Source of the DNA: a virus
Lineage: Duplodnaviria; Heunggongvirae; Uroviricota; Caudoviricetes
Strand: one strand, 5' to 3'
Length of the DNA stretch: 6,274 nucleotides
Virus record (IMG/VR): IMGVR_UViG_2695420597_000012
The notes beneath the pieces were generated by a model that saw nothing but the letters and a program-made list of their open reading frames with translations, was not told the origin of the DNA and made no database searches. Positions 1-6,274 of the stretch are shown in pieces; position 1 is the first letter of the stretch; each line of letters starts with the position of its first letter. Made by a program: the position numbers and the translations under genes.

Positions 1-269
1 AGCCTTCAGGGAAAAATATCATCAGATGGCTGCTTAAAAAAAGAACAAATGGTAGTGTCCGCTATTGCCAGTACACCTCAGGATAGCGGTCATGTGATGC
101 CGGTTTCCCGGTAACTCAGCACCGGTATCTGAGTCAACGTTTTCTCTACTGGGTCATTTCCGATACGCCCTGCCTGCTGACAGGCTTTCATCACATCTGA
201 AAATATAGCACCCTGACTGATACTGTAGTACCTAAGGTTCCAGAAACTGTGATGTATCCGGCACAGAAA

Positions 270-288
270 AGCCCCTCCGGAGAGGGCT
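270..288 (-). other. Imperfect GC-rich stem-loop (7 bp with one bulge) followed on the minus strand by TTTCT; possible weak terminator or RNA 3' end
   Basis: agcccctccggagagggct. The unit 2 copy at 1901-1920 has one extra G, giving a perfect 8-bp stem. Confidence 0.3.
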
Positions 289-484
289 GGAGAGTGGCGC
301 TATGTGCCATTGCATGATGCCGGGTGCCTCCCGGTGAATTCAGTACCAGCACCTGAATCCGCGATTATCCCATATACCTACTCGCTGATTGCCCCTCCGC
401 ACAGGGGGATTCACCATGCCAGTTTCTTTTAACAAACTCCCCGCAAAACAGACAACTGTCAACCGTCTGAATTGTGAGACATTT

Positions 485-510
485 AAAAAAAAGGCCCGCA
501 AAAGCGAGCC
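485..510 (-). terminator. Rho-independent terminator directly after the tRNA cluster
   Basis: Minus strand reads ggctcgc-tttt-gcgggcc followed by TTTTTTTT (plus-strand A8 at 485-492, stem 493-499/504-510). It lies 15 nt after the CCA end of tRNA-Arg(UCU). Confidence 0.65.
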
Positions 511-524
511 AGGGAAAATAAGTG

Positions 525-601
525 TGGCGCGTTGTACTGGATTCGAACCAGTGACCGATTGCTTAGAAGGCAATTGCTCTGTCCGGCTGAGCTAACAACG
601 C
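525..601 (-). tRNA. argO: tRNA-Arg, anticodon UCU
   Basis: Hand-folded cloverleaf on the minus strand: acceptor GCGTTGT/ACAACGC, D-stem GCTC/GAGC, anticodon stem ATTGC/GCAAT with loop CTTCTAA, T-arm ACTGG-TTCGAAT-CCAGT, discriminator G, encoded CCA. The symbol is assigned from context (lambdoid ileZ-argN-argO cluster), not from a search. Confidence 0.8.
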
Positions 602-614
602 ATGATGCAGATAA

Positions 615-691
615 TGGACCGCCATCGGGGACTTGAACCCCGCGCAACCAGCTTCGAAGGCTGGCGCTCTTTCCTGATGAGCTAATGGCGG
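615..691 (-). tRNA. argN: tRNA-Arg, anticodon UCG (reads CGA/CGG)
   Basis: Acceptor CCGCCAT/ATGGCGG, D-stem GCTC/GAGC, anticodon stem CCAGC/GCTGG with loop CTTCGAA, T-arm CGGGG-TTCAAGT-CCCCG, encoded CCA. Unusual: position 1 is C, the discriminator is U, and A(-1) could pair with U73. Anticodon and symbol should be confirmed. Confidence 0.65.
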
Positions 692-698
692 TATGTGA

Positions 699-774
699 TG
701 GTGGCCCTTGCTGGATTTGAACCAGCGACCTGGCGATTATGAGTCGCTCGCTCTCACCACTGAGCTAAAGGGCC
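699..774 (-). tRNA. ileZ: tRNA-Ile2-like, anticodon CAU (lysidine type, reads AUA); formally could be Met
   Basis: GGCCCTT-TA-GCTC-AGTGGTGA-GAGC-G-AGCGA-CTCATAA-TCGCC-AGGTC-GCTGG-TTCAAAT-CCAGC-AAGGGCC-A-CCA. This closely resembles my recollection of E. coli ileX (tRNA-Ile2, CAU). Confidence 0.8.
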
Positions 775-814
775 GGGAGCCGCATAATAACGACGCGTAA
801 TTAATTCTTCAATA

Positions 815-1845
815 TCATCCGTTCTGGCTGACTAAATCCTGTACTTCCCGAACCGTCTGCTCAAAACGTTCAGTCTCCAGCTCAACGCCAATTGCACGAC
901 GCCCGAGCGCCAGTGCCGCTTTCACTGTCGAACCCAACCCCATGAAAAAATCTGCAATCAGGTCACCCGGACGACTGCTAGCGCTGATTATCTGCTGCAG
1001 CATTTCTGCCGGTTTTTCGCACGGATGTTTCCCGGGATAGAACTGCACCGGTTTATGCGTCCACACATCGGTATACGGCACCTGCACCGTCACGCCAAAA
1101 TACCGCCGCAGATGTTTATATTCACTCAGCAGCTCCGCATACTGCCGGTTCAGTGAGGTATACGTATCCACCAGCTGGTGGTGGAGCTTTTCCAGTTCAC
1201 CACGCCGATGCTTCTCTTCTGCCACCCGGGCAAACAGCGCCTGTAATTTCAGATAATCGCTTTCATTCGGCAACTGCCACTGACCGGCACTGAACCAGTG
1301 CGACACCATGTTTTTCTTTCCTGTGGCATCTGCAATCTGTTTTGCCGTTATCCCCAGGGCAGCTCGCGCATCACGAAAGTAAGAAATCAGCGGGGCCATC
1401 ACATGCTGTTTCAGTGCACTGCCCTTCGCCGCATACCCGGCATCTTTCGGACGATACGGCCCCTGATAATGTTCCGCGAACAGAATGCGCTCTGTGGCGG
1501 GGAAATACGCCCGCAGGCTTTCCTTGTTGCATCCGTTCCAGCGTCCGGACGGCTTCGCCCAGATAATATGGTTCAGCACACTGAAGCGTTCACGCATCAT
1601 GATTTCGATATCAGATGCCAGGCGATGACCACAGAACAGGTAAAGACTTCCGGCAGGTTTCAGCACCCGCCAGAACTGCGCCAGACACTGGTCCAGCCAC
1701 TTCAGGTAATCATCGTCGCCCTTCCACTGGTTATCCCAGCCCTCAGGCTTCACTTTAAAGTACGGCGGGTCCGTGACTATCAGGTCAACAGAATTTTCGG
1801 GTAACGACCGGATAAATTCCAGGCAGTCGGCGTTGATTAACTCAC
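815..1845 (-). pseudogene. DNA amino-methyltransferase (beta class), copy 1, missing the first ~9 codons and start codon
   Basis: Identical to 3793-4823. Motif IV DPPY and motif I DFFMGLGST are retained. The frame stays open upstream to a TAA at 1871-1873 with no in-frame ATG; the only GTG (1751-1753, used by the ORF track) lies after DPPY and has no Shine-Dalgarno. It could still be annotated as a CDS with a non-canonical start. Confidence 0.55.
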
Positions 1846-1900
1846 TAAAACAACAAAGTCCATAAGGAGTTTACTCACATCTGACAAAATCAATATAAAC

Positions 1901-1920
1901 AGCCCCTCCGGAGAGGGGCT
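1901..1920 (-). other. Perfect 8-bp GC-rich stem-loop (agcccctc-cgga-gaggggct)
   Basis: Direct inspection. Minus-strand downstream sequence is U-rich (gtttatattgatttt) but not a clean U-tract. Confidence 0.3.
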
Positions 1921-2116
1921 GGAGAGTGGCGCTATGTGCCATTGCATGGTGCCGGGTGCCTCCCGGTGAATTCAGTACCAGCACCTGAATCCGCGATTAT
2001 CCCATATACCTACTCGCTGATTGCCCCTCCGCACAGGGGGATTCACCATGCCAGTTTCTTTTAACAAACTCCCCGCAAACCAGACAACAGTCAACCGCCT
2101 GAATTGTGAGACATTT

Positions 2117-2142
2117 AAAAAAAAGGCCCACAAAAGCGAGCC
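2117..2142 (-). terminator. Rho-independent terminator after tRNA cluster 2
   Basis: Minus strand ggctcgc-tttt-gtgggcc + T8. One stem base differs from unit 1, giving a G-U pair, so the stem is kept. Confidence 0.6.
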
Positions 2143-2156
2143 AGGGAAAATAAGTG

Positions 2157-2233
2157 TGGCGCGTTGTACTGGATTCGAACCAGTGACCGATTGCTTAGAA
2201 GGCAATTGCTCTGTCCGGCTGAGCTAACAACGC
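2157..2233 (-). tRNA. argO: tRNA-Arg, anticodon UCU (copy 2)
   Basis: Identical to 525-601. Confidence 0.8.
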
Positions 2234-2246
2234 ATGATGCAGATAA

Positions 2247-2323
2247 TGGACCGCCATCGGGGACTTGAACCCCGCGCAACCAGCTTCGAAGGCTGGCGCT
2301 CTTTCCTGATGAGCTAATGGCGG
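2247..2323 (-). tRNA. argN: tRNA-Arg, anticodon UCG (copy 2)
   Basis: Identical to 615-691. Confidence 0.65.
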
Positions 2324-2330
2324 TATGTGA

Positions 2331-2406
2331 TGGTGGCCCTTGCTGGATTTGAACCAGCGACCTGGCGATTATGAGTCGCTCGCTCTCACCACTGAGCTAA
2401 AGGGCC
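2331..2406 (-). tRNA. ileZ: tRNA-Ile2-like, anticodon CAU (copy 2)
   Basis: Identical to 699-774. Confidence 0.8.
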
Positions 2407-2455
2407 GGGAGCAGAATAATAATGGTGCGTAATTAATTCTGCAATCTCATCCGTT

Positions 2456-3477
2456 TCAAACGATTAAATCCTGAACTTCCCTGACTGTCTGCTCAAAACG
2501 TCCGGTCTCCAGTTCAACGCCAATCGCACGACGCCCGAGCGCCAGTGCCGCTTTTACCGTTGAACCTGAGCCCATAAAAAAATCTGCAACCAGGTCTCCC
2601 GGACGACTGCTTGCGCTGATTATCTGCTGCAGCATTTCTGCCGGTTTTTCGCACGGATGTTTCCCGGGATAGAACTGCACCGGTTTATGTGTCCACACAT
2701 CCGTGTACGGCACCTGCGCCGTCACACCAAAATACCGCCGCAGATGCTTATATTCACTCTGCAGCTCCACATACTGCCGGTTCAGTGACGTATACGTATC
2801 CACCAGCTGGTGGTGGGGCTTTTCCAGTTCACCGCGCTGATGTTTCTCTTCTGCCACCCGGGCAAACAGCGACTGTAATTTCAGATAATCGCTTTCGTTC
2901 GGTAGCTGCCACTGACTGGCACTGAACCAGTGCGACACCATGTTTTTCTTTCCTGTGGCATCTGCAATCTGTTTTGCCGTTATCCCCAGGGCCGCGCGCG
3001 CATCACGAAAGTAAGAAATCAGCGGGGCCATCACATGCTGTTTCAGTGCACTGCCCTTCGCCGCATACCCGGCATCTTTCGGACGATACGGCCCCTGATA
3101 ATGTTCCGCGAACAGAATGCGCTCTGTGGCGGGGAAATACGCCCGCAGGCTTTCCTTGTTGCATCCGTTCCAGCGTCCGGACGGCTTCGCCCAGATAATA
3201 TGGTTCAGCACACTGAAGCGTTCACGCATCATGATTTCGATATCAGATGCCAGGCGATGACCACAGAACAGGTAAAGACTTCCGGCAGGTTTCAGCACCC
3301 GCCAGAACTGCGCCAGACACTGGTCCAGCCACTTCAGGTAATCATCGTCGCCCTTCCACTGGTTATCCCAGCCCTCAGGCTTCACTTTAAAGTACGGCGG
3401 GTCCGTGACTATCAGGTCAACAGAATTTTCGGGTAACGACCGGATAAATTCCAGGCAGTCGGCGTTGATTAACTCAC
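2456..3477 (-). pseudogene. DNA amino-methyltransferase, diverged paralog (copy 2), N-terminally truncated at the junction with tRNA cluster 3
   Basis: About 10 amino-acid differences from copies 1 and 3, a C-terminus 3 codons shorter (LIV* versus LVSQNG*), and many silent nucleotide changes. DPPY is retained; motif I is DFFMGSGST. The frame runs upstream into tRNA-derived sequence with no in-frame ATG. Confidence 0.55.
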
Positions 3478-3502
3478 AAAAGCGAGCCAGGGAAAATAAG
3501 TG

Positions 3503-3579
3503 TGGCGCGTTGTACTGGATTCGAACCAGTGACCGATTGCTTAGAAGGCAATTGCTCTGTCCGGCTGAGCTAACAACGC
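3503..3579 (-). tRNA. argO: tRNA-Arg, anticodon UCU (copy 3)
   Basis: Identical to 525-601. Confidence 0.8.
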
Positions 3580-3592
3580 ATGATGCAGATAA

Positions 3593-3669
3593 TGGACCGC
3601 CATCGGGGACTTGAACCCCGCGCAGCCAGCTTCGAAGGCTGGCGCTCTTTCCTGATGAGCTAATGGCGG
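3593..3669 (-). tRNA. argN: tRNA-Arg, anticodon UCG (copy 3, variable-loop variant)
   Basis: Same as 615-691 except plus-strand A to G at 3625 (variable loop TTGCG to CTGCG in the tRNA). Confidence 0.65.
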
Positions 3670-3676
3670 TATGTGA

Positions 3677-3752
3677 TGGTGGCCCTTGCTGGATTTGAAC
3701 CAGCGACCTGGCGATTATGAGTCGCTCGCTCTCACCACTGAGCTAAAGGGCC
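3677..3752 (-). tRNA. ileZ: tRNA-Ile2-like, anticodon CAU (copy 3)
   Basis: Identical to 699-774. Confidence 0.8.
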
Positions 3753-3792
3753 GGGAGCCGCATAATAACGACGCGTAATTAATTCTTCAATA

Positions 3793-4851
3793 TCATCCGT
3801 TCTGGCTGACTAAATCCTGTACTTCCCGAACCGTCTGCTCAAAACGTTCAGTCTCCAGCTCAACGCCAATTGCACGACGCCCGAGCGCCAGTGCCGCTTT
3901 CACTGTCGAACCCAACCCCATGAAAAAATCTGCAATCAGGTCACCCGGACGACTGCTAGCGCTGATTATCTGCTGCAGCATTTCTGCCGGTTTTTCGCAC
4001 GGATGTTTCCCGGGATAGAACTGCACCGGTTTATGCGTCCACACATCGGTATACGGCACCTGCACCGTCACGCCAAAATACCGCCGCAGATGTTTATATT
4101 CACTCAGCAGCTCCGCATACTGCCGGTTCAGTGAGGTATACGTATCCACCAGCTGGTGGTGGAGCTTTTCCAGTTCACCACGCCGATGCTTCTCTTCTGC
4201 CACCCGGGCAAACAGCGCCTGTAATTTCAGATAATCGCTTTCATTCGGCAACTGCCACTGACCGGCACTGAACCAGTGCGACACCATGTTTTTCTTTCCT
4301 GTGGCATCTGCAATCTGTTTTGCCGTTATCCCCAGGGCAGCTCGCGCATCACGAAAGTAAGAAATCAGCGGGGCCATCACATGCTGTTTCAGTGCACTGC
4401 CCTTCGCCGCATACCCGGCATCTTTCGGACGATACGGCCCCTGATAATGTTCCGCGAACAGAATGCGCTCTGTGGCGGGGAAATACGCCCGCAGGCTTTC
4501 CTTGTTGCATCCGTTCCAGCGTCCGGACGGCTTCGCCCAGATAATATGGTTCAGCACACTGAAGCGTTCACGCATCATGATTTCGATATCAGATGCCAGG
4601 CGATGACCACAGAACAGGTAAAGACTTCCGGCAGGTTTCAGCACCCGCCAGAACTGCGCCAGACACTGGTCCAGCCACTTCAGGTAATCATCGTCGCCCT
4701 TCCACTGGTTATCCCAGCCCTCAGGCTTCACTTTAAAGTACGGCGGGTCCGTGACTATCAGGTCAACAGAATTTTCGGGTAACGACCGGATAAATTCCAG
4801 GCAGTCGGCGTTGATTAACTCACAACTGGATATTTTTACAGTATTAAGCAT
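3793..4851 (-). CDS. DNA N6-adenine or N4-cytosine methyltransferase (beta-class, likely orphan, phage type), full length 352 aa
   Basis: ATG at 4849-4851 with an in-frame TGA two codons upstream. DPPY (motif IV) lies near the N-terminus and FxGxG (DFFMGLGST, motif I) near the C-terminus, the IV-then-I order of beta-class amino-MTases. No adjacent restriction endonuclease ORF. The Shine-Dalgarno is weak. Confidence 0.85.
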   Translation of the reverse strand: MLNTVKISSCELINADCLEFIRSLPENSVDLIVTDPPYFKVKPEGWDNQWKGDDDYLKWLDQCLAQFWRVLKPAGSLYLFCGHRLASDIEIMMRERFSVLNHIIWAKPSGRWNGCNKESLRAYFPATERILFAEHYQGPYRPKDAGYAAKGSALKQHVMAPLISYFRDARAALGITAKQIADATGKKNMVSHWFSAGQWQLPNESDYLKLQALFARVAEEKHRRGELEKLHHQLVDTYTSLNRQYAELLSEYKHLRRYFGVTVQVPYTDVWTHKPVQFYPGKHPCEKPAEMLQQIISASSRPGDLIADFFMGLGSTVKAALALGRRAIGVELETERFEQTVREVQDLVSQNG

Positions 4852-4944
4852 GGATCATTAAGCCTGTCTCTGATAGGCTCATTCTGCTTTTGCGCAAAGC
4901 AGTGGGCCTGAGGTTTGCTTGTGAACCCAACGCATGAGCAGATG

Positions 4945-4973
4945 GCTGGTGGGTGCCCCTAACACCCACCAGC
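4945..4973 (-). other. Perfect 11-bp stem-loop (gctggtgggtg-cccctaa-cacccaccagc), not followed by a U-tract on either strand
   Basis: Direct inspection. It lies between the terminator at 4986-5015 and the methyltransferase start. Confidence 0.5.
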
Positions 4974-4985
4974 CGCCCATTTACC

Positions 4986-5015
4986 ACAAATAAAAAAGCC
5001 TTCACTGCGGAAGGC
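4986..5015 (-). terminator. Rho-independent terminator after the 65-aa ORF
   Basis: Minus strand gccttccgcagtgaaggc (6-bp stem) followed by TTTTTTATTT. The ORF stop codon (5002-5004) lies inside the stem. Confidence 0.55.
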
Positions 5016-5199
5016 GTCTGTAACAACCGAACTGATAGTCTGCCAGACCCGCCATAACCAGCTGGGTCAGTATTAACTGGCAGCGTTCGCGTGAAAGGTA
5101 AGTATTCTGCGCTATCTCCCCGACTGTCGCCGGTTCGGTAACGCTTAATTCATTAAACACCACTCTGGCGGTTTCTGTCATATCCTGCTGTTTTAGCAT
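5002..5199 (-). CDS. Small 65-aa protein, possibly a winged-helix DNA-binding protein (PapI/FaeA-like pattern)
   Basis: ATG at 5197-5199 preceded by AAGGA 6 nt upstream (minus strand ggaaaaggaaaagacATG), with its own terminator. The segment TVGEIAQNTYLSRERCQLILTQLVMAGL resembles small winged-helix regulators. The fold assignment is by eye only. Confidence 0.4.
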   Translation of the reverse strand: MLKQQDMTETARVVFNELSVTEPATVGEIAQNTYLSRERCQLILTQLVMAGLADYQFGCYRRLPQ

Positions 5200-5317
5200 G
5201 TCTTTTCCTTTTCCGGTTAACGTGACACACCAATAACTCTTGTCGAAAAAGCCAGCAAGCTGAAAGACAGGTATTCACCGCCACCAGCGCGTTTACTGTA
5301 CTGACGCGATTTCAGTC

Positions 5318-5341
5318 ATAAAAAACCCGCCAGGCGGCGGG
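5318..5341 (-). terminator. Strong rho-independent terminator ~85 nt downstream of Q (tR'-like)
   Basis: Minus strand cccgcc-gcct-ggcggg (6 GC pairs) followed by TTTTTTAT. Confidence 0.6.
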
Positions 5342-5390
5342 GTGTAAAAAATCTTCTAACGTCAGGCATAAAACGCCCATCGTTAGAGCA

Positions 5391-5418
5391 AATTTACCAC
5401 AGATTCGGGAAAAATCAA
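5391..5418 (-). promoter_or_regulatory. Candidate sigma70 late promoter (PR'-like) just after the Q stop
   Basis: Minus strand TTGATT (5418-5413) - 16 nt - TAAATT (5396-5391). Hexamer match only; the qut site is not identifiable by eye. Confidence 0.25.
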
Positions 5419-5423
5419 CAACA

Positions 5424-6245
5424 CTATCGCGTTACCCTCTTTAACTGCCGCTCCGCCCATGCCTCTTCAATGTCAAACCGAACCACCAACGTATCGTAAA
5501 AGCGTTTCACTGATTTTTTCCACGTATCAAGCGTGATAGCACTCGTCACTTTGCATATGGCATTAAATGCCTCCGTTGATGGCAGCCTTTCACAGCCACG
5601 ACCACCACAACGCTGGCAGTCTCTGATAACAGGCATACCACGTTTTACCGACTCTTCACGATGAATGGCGACACCACGCCCACGGCAATCCTTACAGGCG
5701 GTGGAAACCTCACCCTTTCCGCCACACTCCGGACAGGCAACTTTTACCACCTCCCGATTTTTTTTCCATTCTTCCCAGTAAGACGGATACACACCTTTCG
5801 TACACTTTGCCCATACCGGCGGCTTACCATCCGGATACTGGACCTTGTTTGTAAAAACTACGCTTTCAATAAATTTTTCCCCATAGCAACAAGGGCACTG
5901 CTTTTTACTCGCTGCGCTGCGGGCATAATCCTCAAAAGCGTACGAAGCCATAATGCGCATCACTACCGGTTTTATTTCTGCCGGGAGTTTTCTTAACGCC
6001 GCCACGCGATCACACCGACTGAGTGCATATTCTGTCAGCAATTCTGTTGCCCGCTCTCTGTCATTCATACTAATGCCCATTTTCCCAAGGAACGCAGAAA
6101 ACCCCATCTCAGCCCGATTCTGTGTCATGCCCTGCGCGGCCATCACATCAGTGATACTCAGCGCATCTTTCGACGTTGAGGCCGATGCATCAGTCAGGCC
6201 GGGGGATTTTGGGGAGTAGTATTTCGGTAAATCTTCCAGTTTCAT
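5424..6245 (-). CDS. Antitermination protein Q-like (long Q family with DnaJ-type CxxCxGxG zinc-finger repeats), 273 aa
   Basis: ATG at 6243-6245, stop TAG at 5424-5426. Three CxxCxGxG-type repeats (CPECGGKG, CKDCRGRG, CQRCGGRG) plus CPCC. It sits immediately upstream of a promoter/terminator pair and the methyltransferase-tRNA late region, as in lambdoid prophages. Family assignment is from memory, not a search. Confidence 0.6.
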   Translation of the reverse strand: MKLEDLPKYYSPKSPGLTDASASTSKDALSITDVMAAQGMTQNRAEMGFSAFLGKMGISMNDRERATELLTEYALSRCDRVAALRKLPAEIKPVVMRIMASYAFEDYARSAASKKQCPCCYGEKFIESVVFTNKVQYPDGKPPVWAKCTKGVYPSYWEEWKKNREVVKVACPECGGKGEVSTACKDCRGRGVAIHREESVKRGMPVIRDCQRCGGRGCERLPSTEAFNAICKVTSAITLDTWKKSVKRFYDTLVVRFDIEEAWAERQLKRVTR

Positions 6246-6274
6246 TTTTTGACCTGCCCTTCAAGCATTATGGG

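Follow-up and report, generated by a model that had tools for sequence, protein, structure and literature searches.

Does this phage DNA carry a late-region cassette amplified in tandem, or three separate pieces that an assembly has put end to end? In the letters of the window (the whole 6,274-nt stretch analyzed here), ARAGORN finds nine tRNA genes as three triplets in identical order, accompanied by three methyltransferase (MTase) reading frames, all on the minus strand. Self-BLAST aligns 267-1850 with 1897-3481 at 96.3% identity and 499-1845 with 3477-4823 at 99.93%, the repeats being offset by 1632, 1346, and 2978, a similarity that exceeds chance by far. We refer to the three copies, from left to right, as units A, B, and C. 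The first-pass annotation had taken them for three tandem cassettes, the outer two identical at an offset of 2978 and the middle one diverged at an offset of 1632, and had left the choice between a real amplification and a mis-joined assembly. The copies, their offsets, and the ~96% identity of the middle one are confirmed in the letters; the outer two differ at a single base (647 versus 3625), and the contiguity of the array does not stand.

An exact match of the Q protein sequence led us to the source record. The reverse complement of the whole draft record (assembly GCA_001258915.1, contig CXEY01000265.1, 6274 nt) equals the window except at 1844 and 3476, where the record has N and the window has A. 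These two sites coincide exactly with the two inter-unit junctions and lie within the intervals already proposed for them (1840-1905 and 3465-3490). Since the record differs nowhere else, and both differences are Ns at junctions, the array consists of three contigs with single-N gaps (Table 1). We therefore consider the tandem array to be, with little doubt, a scaffolding artefact in which contigs were chained across such gaps, rather than a gene amplification.

Table 1. Features of the window, in window coordinates
Feature	Position	Strand	Details
Contig 3	1-1843		S. sonnei-like chromosome type locus, ends in IS600
IS3-family (IS600-like) insertion sequence, terminal part	1..79	.	forms the left end of both contig 3 and the record
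STnc100-family sRNA homologue, A-type copy	259..448	-	Rfam RF02076, 123.6 bits; terminator-like hairpin 288-270
tRNA triplet, contig 3	525..774	-	CAT (tRNA-Ile2 type) 699-774, Arg-TCG 615-691, Arg-TCT 525-601; ARAGORN, Rfam
A-type MTase frame, incomplete	815..1843	-	contig 3 starts at codon 11; equals unit C over the shared part
Scaffold gap, contig 2/contig 3 join	1844	.	record (L150) position 4431 = N, context ...ttgttttagNgagttaatc...
Contig 2	1845-3475		allele of a second prophage
Contig 2 tail	1845..1896	-	in complete genomes, continues as the 3' end of an iraM-like prophage gene (PmrD family)
STnc100-family sRNA homologue, B-type copy	1891..2080	-	Rfam RF02076, 132.4 bits; terminator hairpin 1921-1900
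tRNA triplet, contig 2	2157..2406	-	Ile2-type CAT, Arg-TCG, Arg-TCT; ARAGORN, Rfam
B-type MTase frame, incomplete	2456..3475	-	another prophage's allele; contig 2 starts at codon 11
Scaffold gap, contig 1/contig 2 join	3476	.	record (L150) position 2799 = N, context ...gctcgcttttgNgagttaatc...
Contig 1	3477-6274		Q antiterminator, full MTase, tRNAs
tRNA triplet, contig 1	3503..3752	-	Arg-TCG with C, not T, at 3625; ARAGORN, Rfam
MTase, sole complete copy, 352 aa	3793..4851	-	PF01555, beta-class N6-adenine MTase, M.EcoGI/GII family
Conserved 65-aa ORF between Q and MTase	5002..5199	-	hypothetical protein in relatives' annotation
Late-gene antiterminator Q, 273 aa	5424..6245	-	PF03589, 171.2 bits against a cut-off of 26.7

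A real tandem amplification should show determined sequence running unbroken from unit to unit, one novel junction recurring between units, and units derived from one another. Here, both junctions are N, and their left partners differ, being the loop of a tRNA terminator in one case and iraM-side sequence in the other. The periods of the two joins, 1346 and 1632 nt, are unequal, which disposes of the uniform ~1.3-kb unit seen at first. All four contig ends halt exactly where paralogous prophage alleles differ (ccagttgT/Cgag, cgcttttgC/Tggg, and ttttagC/Tcca). Queries spanning the junctions had no match of at least 80% coverage in 5,426 complete E. coli genomes, and the junction pattern, a search that recovers both sites in the window itself, was unmatched in IMG/VR, GTDB representative genomes, and JGI metagenomes.

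Taken one by one, the contigs lead back to ordinary loci. Contig 2, first described as a diverged version of the first unit, belongs instead to a separate natural locus: positions 1845-3479 equal E. coli CP151292.1 (locus L143, 8423-10057), the N position being the sole difference. In that locus the MTase gene upstream is full (349 aa) and an iraM-like gene follows downstream, and the same single-copy arrangement is found at 99.9% identity in many complete genomes. At its other end, 1844-1990 matches prophage loci of the Q-tRNA-iraM type at 100%, and the contig stops 22 nt inside the region that leads into iraM in every complete genome.

Contig 3 gives a similar picture. Positions 1-1845 are colinear with S. 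sonnei-type chromosomes, IS600 junction included, with 1 mismatch, and there the locus is single-copy and preceded by full-length MTase sequence. The junction with the IS flank is shared by seven of 10 such chromosomes (loci L133-136, 138, 139, and 142), and over 2,800 genomes of E. coli contain IS3/IS600-family transposase elements that match the terminal IS part at 100%. The A-type frame is not truncated in the genome; its missing start reflects the contig boundary. Instead of the three MTase genes first reported, only one is complete; the other two frames have no start codon ahead of a GTG that lies downstream of the DPPY motif, and exact look-ups of their truncated products (309 and 312 aa) matched only single-copy or N-containing contigs.

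Contig 1 holds the intact part of the cassette. Its MTase scores 144.1 bits with Pfam N6_N4_Mtase (cut-off 26.7, residues 29-340), and its translation contains TDPPYF toward the N terminus and FFMGLGS toward the C terminus, in agreement with the DPPY/FxGxG methyltransferase of the first-pass annotation and with the beta class; PDB relatives include M.RsrI, CcrM, and MboIIA. Q matches the Pfam Antiterm family above its gathering score, is located upstream of the late genes, and has terminator-like hairpins behind it (5390-5374 and 5341-5326). The 65-aa ORF weakly resembles a TrmB-type helix-turn-helix (Pfam TrmB, E=0.0026, under the family cut-off). In contig 1, an A-type MTase stands beside a Q allele that elsewhere goes with B-type loci, and no complete E. 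coli genome matches the contig above 98.4%.

The earlier expectation that a lambdoid late region carries this cassette once agrees with the relatives compared: across the E. coli, IMG/VR, JGI, and GTDB collections, the close relatives examined have one complete cassette each at the locus. Of the 30 best-matching genomes, 27 have a locus of ~3.22 kb with one cassette, as long as the window less 2978 nt; the other three are longer because of an IS421 insertion or a partial duplication of the MTase, without a second cassette. The tRNA triplet is likewise supported by ARAGORN and Rfam, and its Ile/Arg/Arg assignment agrees with the annotation of RefSeq relatives. The anticodons CAT, TCG, and TCT follow in order, downstream of Q and the MTase; from its anticodon, ARAGORN calls the CAT tRNA Met, and RefSeq (PGAP) annotation of relatives calls it tRNA-Ile. 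Relatives' annotations give tRNA-Ile, two tRNA-Arg, and argN. A literature search for ileZ, argN, and argO found nothing.

How the joins arose can be sketched as follows. The isolate would have two or more lambdoid prophages whose late-region modules (Q, 65-aa ORF, MTase, tRNAs, and STnc100) are paralogous. Because the module copies are 96-100% identical, the contigs would have broken or stopped where the paralogues differ, and a greedy scaffolder or gap-filler may then have joined the pieces head to tail; the N at both gaps would have become A during preparation of the window. In the genome, the module would most likely occur once per prophage. The case resembles the false joins and N gaps of SSPACE/GapFiller-type greedy scaffolding (Page et al. 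2016, PMC5320598) in its single-N joins between repeat-sharing contigs. To that type of artefact also correspond the contig ends at paralogue-variant sites and the N-rich sibling scaffolds, the sibling assembly's contig over the equivalent region being full of N runs of 1 to 987. Searches of the literature and of the supplementary files of Page et al. 2016 did not find the accession of the CXEY01000265.1 record. Two points weigh against a scaffolding artefact: chaining contigs takes some read-pair or reference evidence, and the A-type MTase-tRNA stretch is present twice, in contigs 1 and 3, one base apart. This doubled stretch is either a third cassette copy elsewhere in the genome or a redundant extension by the assembler.

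In another reading, the cassettes are real and only their adjacency is false. Three dispersed prophages, one with the B-linked Q allele and an A-type MTase, one with the B-type module and iraM, and one with the IS600-flanked A-type module, would explain why contigs 1 and 3 differ within tRNA-Arg-TCG and why contig 1 has its mixed pairing, and E. coli genomes match the window at a median of 3 places per genome and at 34 at most. Against this reading, the best complete-genome match to contig 1 reaches at most 98.4%, so that its hybrid may instead be a wrong path through the ~500-nt stretch common to both alleles. We regard three prophages as possible though rather doubtful, and this reading belongs with the artefact explanation as one of its variants rather than with amplification.

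A real, heterogeneous array, in which recombination between resident prophages added one B-type and one further A-type cassette after the native copy and the assembler missed one base per junction, is very unlikely. The scaffolder did place the three pieces in the same orientation and order, and small true duplications are known in the region, such as a 455-nt perfect tandem duplication of the 5' part of the MTase in the gap-free CB7453 chromosome. However, the Ns fall at both joins, the bases beside each N are the last or first shared by the paralogues rather than novel junction sequence, and two independent junctions would have had to hit the identical MTase nucleotide. The iraM-side stop of contig 2 and the absence of the junctions from all collections searched also count against it. 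That the scaffold order is correct as deposited, with illegitimate recombination between resident prophages having put three cassettes of two lineages head to tail, giving nine tRNAs, two STnc100 copies, and one working MTase, is scarcely credible.

The mechanisms considered for the junctions are all moot because both junction bases are N and the shared breakpoint is a T/C difference between paralogues. They were independent microhomology joins of 2-5 nt (TTG/TTGTG at 3475-3479, GT at 1844-1845); a one-step, MMBIR-like template switch from one prophage to another; a deletion with ends at TTTTGTG and TTTTAGTG, by which the second junction would have given rise to the first; a 2978-nt circular element, which would be indistinguishable in an assembly graph; and, to account for the identical MTase nucleotide at both joins, a fixed-end process (rolling-circle or one-ended transposition, an integron-like GTTRRRY core, which the sequence does not fit, or a site-specific break). 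An IMG/VR contig with three MTase 5' segments was no precedent either, having a single N exactly at the break, where homology ends.

The apparent triple repeat is thus not a real feature, and what lies beneath it is a prophage module of an ordinary and well-known kind. A draft record may be deposited as a contig and yet be a scaffold, and once gap Ns are turned into ordinary bases, repeat-rich prophage regions mimic striking tandem amplifications. Because the single-N signature recurs in the IMG/VR contig with repeated MTase 5' segments, scans for prophage amplification should mask or check N positions. A true array would still amount to a modest structural variant, one with a higher phage tRNA dosage, and would not represent a novel type of system.

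The underlying feature is the known lambdoid/Stx-phage late module of Q, M.EcoGII-like MTase, tRNA-Ile2/Arg/Arg, and STnc100, whose biology has already been described. Its gene order matches that of Stx-converting and lambdoid phages (Stx2a phages, 1720a-02, and phiP27), in which Q, a DNA methylase, and tRNA-Ile/Arg/Arg precede stx or an esterase and the lysis genes; E. coli prophages have the order Q, 65-aa ORF, MTase, tRNAs, SASA esterase, and holin in common. Across the MTase and tRNAs, 315 phage records share 84-94% DNA identity with the window, several of them annotating argN and tRNA-Ile/Arg. Unlike the Stx-phage module, the window has no stx genes, and the threefold repetition is foreign to that module.

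M.EcoGI and M.EcoGII, encoded by prophages of E. coli O104:H4, are beta-class, non-specific adenine DNA methyltransferases, and the MTase of phage 1720a-02 has been named as very similar to M.EcoGII (PMC5778455). The window MTase shares with them the beta-class motif order, the length of ~349-352 aa, and the prophage location. From its 95% identity to the 1720a-02 enzyme, we infer that it may methylate adenines non-specifically. By analogy with lambdoid phage biology, RNA polymerase modified by Q would pass terminators from the late promoter, so that the MTase would be expressed and adenines in phage DNA methylated, and the rare-codon tRNAs (AUA, CGA, and AGA/AGG) and the sRNA would also be expressed ahead of the lysis genes.

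STnc100 is associated with prophages or Stx phages. The window has two predicted homologues, in units A and B, that were absent from the first-pass annotation; both are full length (model positions 1-206 of 206, gathering score 47) and lie directly downstream of the tRNAs.

Three copies of a methyltransferase (MTase)-tRNA cassette are present in the window, as the first-pass annotation described, but their contiguity is not real sequence, both joins being N in the deposited record. Searching for exact matches to the Q protein of the window led to contig CXEY01000265.1 of GCA_001258915.1 (L150), a public draft record that in its whole length of 6274 nt corresponds to the window in reverse orientation. 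L150 is the reverse complement of the window save at two positions, both N in the record; the plus strand of the window has 'A' at each. The apparent tandem junctions are therefore scaffold gaps, and the record is a chain of three contigs. The alternative offered at first pass, a mis-joined assembly, thus holds: the apparent array is an artefact of scaffolding, and what underlies it is a prophage module already known.

We call the left, middle and right cassettes units A, B and C (contigs 3, 2 and 1, respectively), and the two alleles of the MTase-tRNA module A-type and B-type. Nine tRNA genes, all on the minus strand, form three triplets sharing one order (anticodon-CAT tRNA, Arg-TCG, Arg-TCT), alongside three MTase reading frames. 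ARAGORN calls the anticodon-CAT tRNA Met by its anticodon, and RefSeq relatives annotate it as tRNA-Ile. The repeats go far beyond chance, and their self-BLAST alignments bear out the proposed offsets of 1632 and 2978. Units A and C differ only once (647 versus 3625, T/C), at a variable-loop base of tRNA-Arg(TCG); here unit A agrees with the B-type allele, unit C with the Shigella sonnei-type one. A single MTase is complete; in the other two frames, which start at codon 11, the first start codon is a GTG downstream of DPPY. A spurious minus-strand frame, 3461-3625 into 2456-3475, crosses tRNA genes in frame with the B-type MTase over the N; the difference at 3625 makes its putative TTG start a CTG in unit C. 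This frame carries no biological weight.

Features of the window and of the deposited record (window coordinates)
Feature	Position	Strand	Detail
Contig 1	3477-6274		
Contig 2	1845-3475		
Contig 3	1-1843		
N	3476		L150 2799; record reads ...gctcgcttttgNgagttaatc...
N	1844		L150 4431; record reads ...ttgttttagNgagttaatc...
Self-BLAST pair	267-1850 vs 1897-3481		96.3%
Self-BLAST pair	499-1845 vs 3477-4823		99.93%
Self-BLAST pair	2129-3479 vs 3475-4825		96.2%
tRNA triplet 1	525-774	minus	ARAGORN
tRNA triplet 2	2157-2406	minus	ARAGORN
tRNA triplet 3	3503-3752	minus	ARAGORN
Complete MTase, 352 aa	3793-4851	minus	DPPY and FxGxG; PF01555, 144 bits
STnc100 homologue, full-length	259-448	minus	RF02076, 123.6 bits; directly downstream of unit A tRNAs
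STnc100 homologue, full-length	1891-2080	minus	RF02076, 132.4 bits; directly downstream of unit B tRNAs
Conserved 65-aa ORF	5002-5199	minus	between Q and MTase
IS600-like (IS3-family) element end	1-79		inserted in flank
Terminator-like hairpins	5390-5374; 5341-5326; 5015-4998		also after tRNAs

Each piece has a natural counterpart. Unit A with its left flank shows one mismatch in 1845 nt to S. sonnei-type chromosomes such as HE616528.1 (which we take to be strain 53G), a match that takes in the IS600-like end; in these chromosomes the cassette is single copy, with a full MTase before it. Of 10 S. sonnei-type chromosomes, 7 share this exact insertion junction, against none of 5,426 complete E. 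coli genomes; this distribution gives a hint of the source isolate's lineage. Unit B and its 3' tail (1846-2760) are 99.9% identical to a natural arrangement that many complete genomes carry as a single copy, ordered MTase, tRNAs, STnc100 and iraM-like gene. Window 3477-5330 is identical to the same S. sonnei-type locus as unit A, and the Q gene region (5331-6101) is ~5% different from that locus; its match is the Q allele that accompanies B-type loci, for example that of E. coli CP151292.1.

The isolate carries at least two lambdoid prophages with paralogous copies of this late-region module. Contig 1 is a hybrid: its Q allele is the one that goes with B-type (iraM) prophages, and all that lies downstream is A-type. 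No complete E. coli genome matches this hybrid above 98.4%, so contig 1 may be a chimeric assembly path through the ~500-nt stretch common to both alleles. The A-type MTase-tRNA stretch lies on both contig 1 and contig 3, the two differing at one base; either the isolate has a third, dispersed cassette copy, or assembly went astray within those ~500 nt, with redundant extension. Neither restores the tandem array.

All contig ends beside an N fall exactly on sites variable between paralogous prophage alleles. Contigs 2 and 3 start at ccagttgTgag (S. sonnei-type locus) versus ccagttgCgag (CP151292.1), contig 1 ends at cgcttttgCggg versus cgcttttgTggg, and contig 2 ends at ttttagCcca (the B-type locus of CP151292.1) versus ttttagTcca (a further prophage locus). 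Graph branching or greedy base-by-base extension within a repeat family would end contigs at such sites. On the minus strand, the join near 3476 reads ...gctcgcttttgTgagttaatc... and that near 1844 reads ...ttgttttagTgagttaatc...; both enter the same MTase nucleotide from different left partners, respectively the hairpin loop of the terminator that follows the tRNAs and a sequence that many E. coli prophages extend into an iraM-like gene at its 3' end. This shared MTase 'breakpoint', otherwise very improbable, is explained by contigs ending at paralogue-variant sites. Junction-spanning queries for either join reached 80% coverage nowhere in 5,426 complete E. coli genomes, and a degenerate pattern for both junctions matched twice in the window and nowhere in IMG/VR, GTDB species representatives or JGI metagenomes. 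Among the 30 best-matching complete genomes, 27 have a locus span of ~3.22 kb, which equals the window minus 2978 nt and so one cassette; the remaining three have a longer span, yet no second cassette. A partial MTase duplication brings the span to 3,673 nt in the two CB7453 records, and an IS421 insertion brings it to 4,568 nt in DLI.5a and AST46. A real tandem array in the isolate is very improbable, since its junctions should have yielded sequence that spans them uniquely, not contig ends at sites where paralogues vary.

A sibling assembly contig covering the same prophage region (GCA_001258955.1, CXDA01000121.1) has eight N runs, the shortest 1 nt and the longest 987 nt, which shows that this project deposited scaffolds, not contigs. 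A Velvet/SSPACE/GapFiller pipeline is described in Page et al. 2016 (PMC5320598), and probably produced the present record. The IMG/VR contig IMGVR_UViG_2695420685_000022 (L047), which has the MTase 5' 474 nt three times, was rejected as a precedent for the repeats: its single N, at L047 position 4427, lies exactly at the homology end, the same scaffold-join signature. The N runs, the pipeline and this N all fit scaffold joining. The complete chromosome of E. coli CB7453 (NZ_CM144245.1; L002 5426-6334) repeats 455 nt of the MTase 5' region in perfect tandem and contains no Ns there, so that a partial MTase pseudogene lies upstream of the intact gene; this is either a small real duplication in the module or a long-read assembly quirk.

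The biology of the module is already known and nothing in it is new. It comprises the Q antiterminator (PF03589), the conserved 65-aa ORF, a beta-class adenine MTase, three tRNAs and STnc100 (whose homologues the first-pass annotation lacked); what follows it in relatives is either a SASA esterase with lysis genes or an iraM-like gene. Stx2 phages make up most of the 315 phage records in which the same module occurs at 84-94% identity. The MTase shares 95% identity with the enzyme of phage 1720a-02, listed as very similar to M.EcoGII, a non-specific adenine MTase silent in the lysogen (PMC5778455). Judging from lambdoid phage biology, Q-modified polymerase would read through the terminator-like hairpins, and lytic growth would bring expression of the MTase, the rare-codon tRNAs (AUA, CGA, AGA/AGG) and the sRNA. 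The 65-aa ORF has a weak TrmB-type helix-turn-helix match, under the Pfam cut-off, and the RefSeq annotation of phiP27 places a 'TrmB family transcriptional regulator' inside its matched region.
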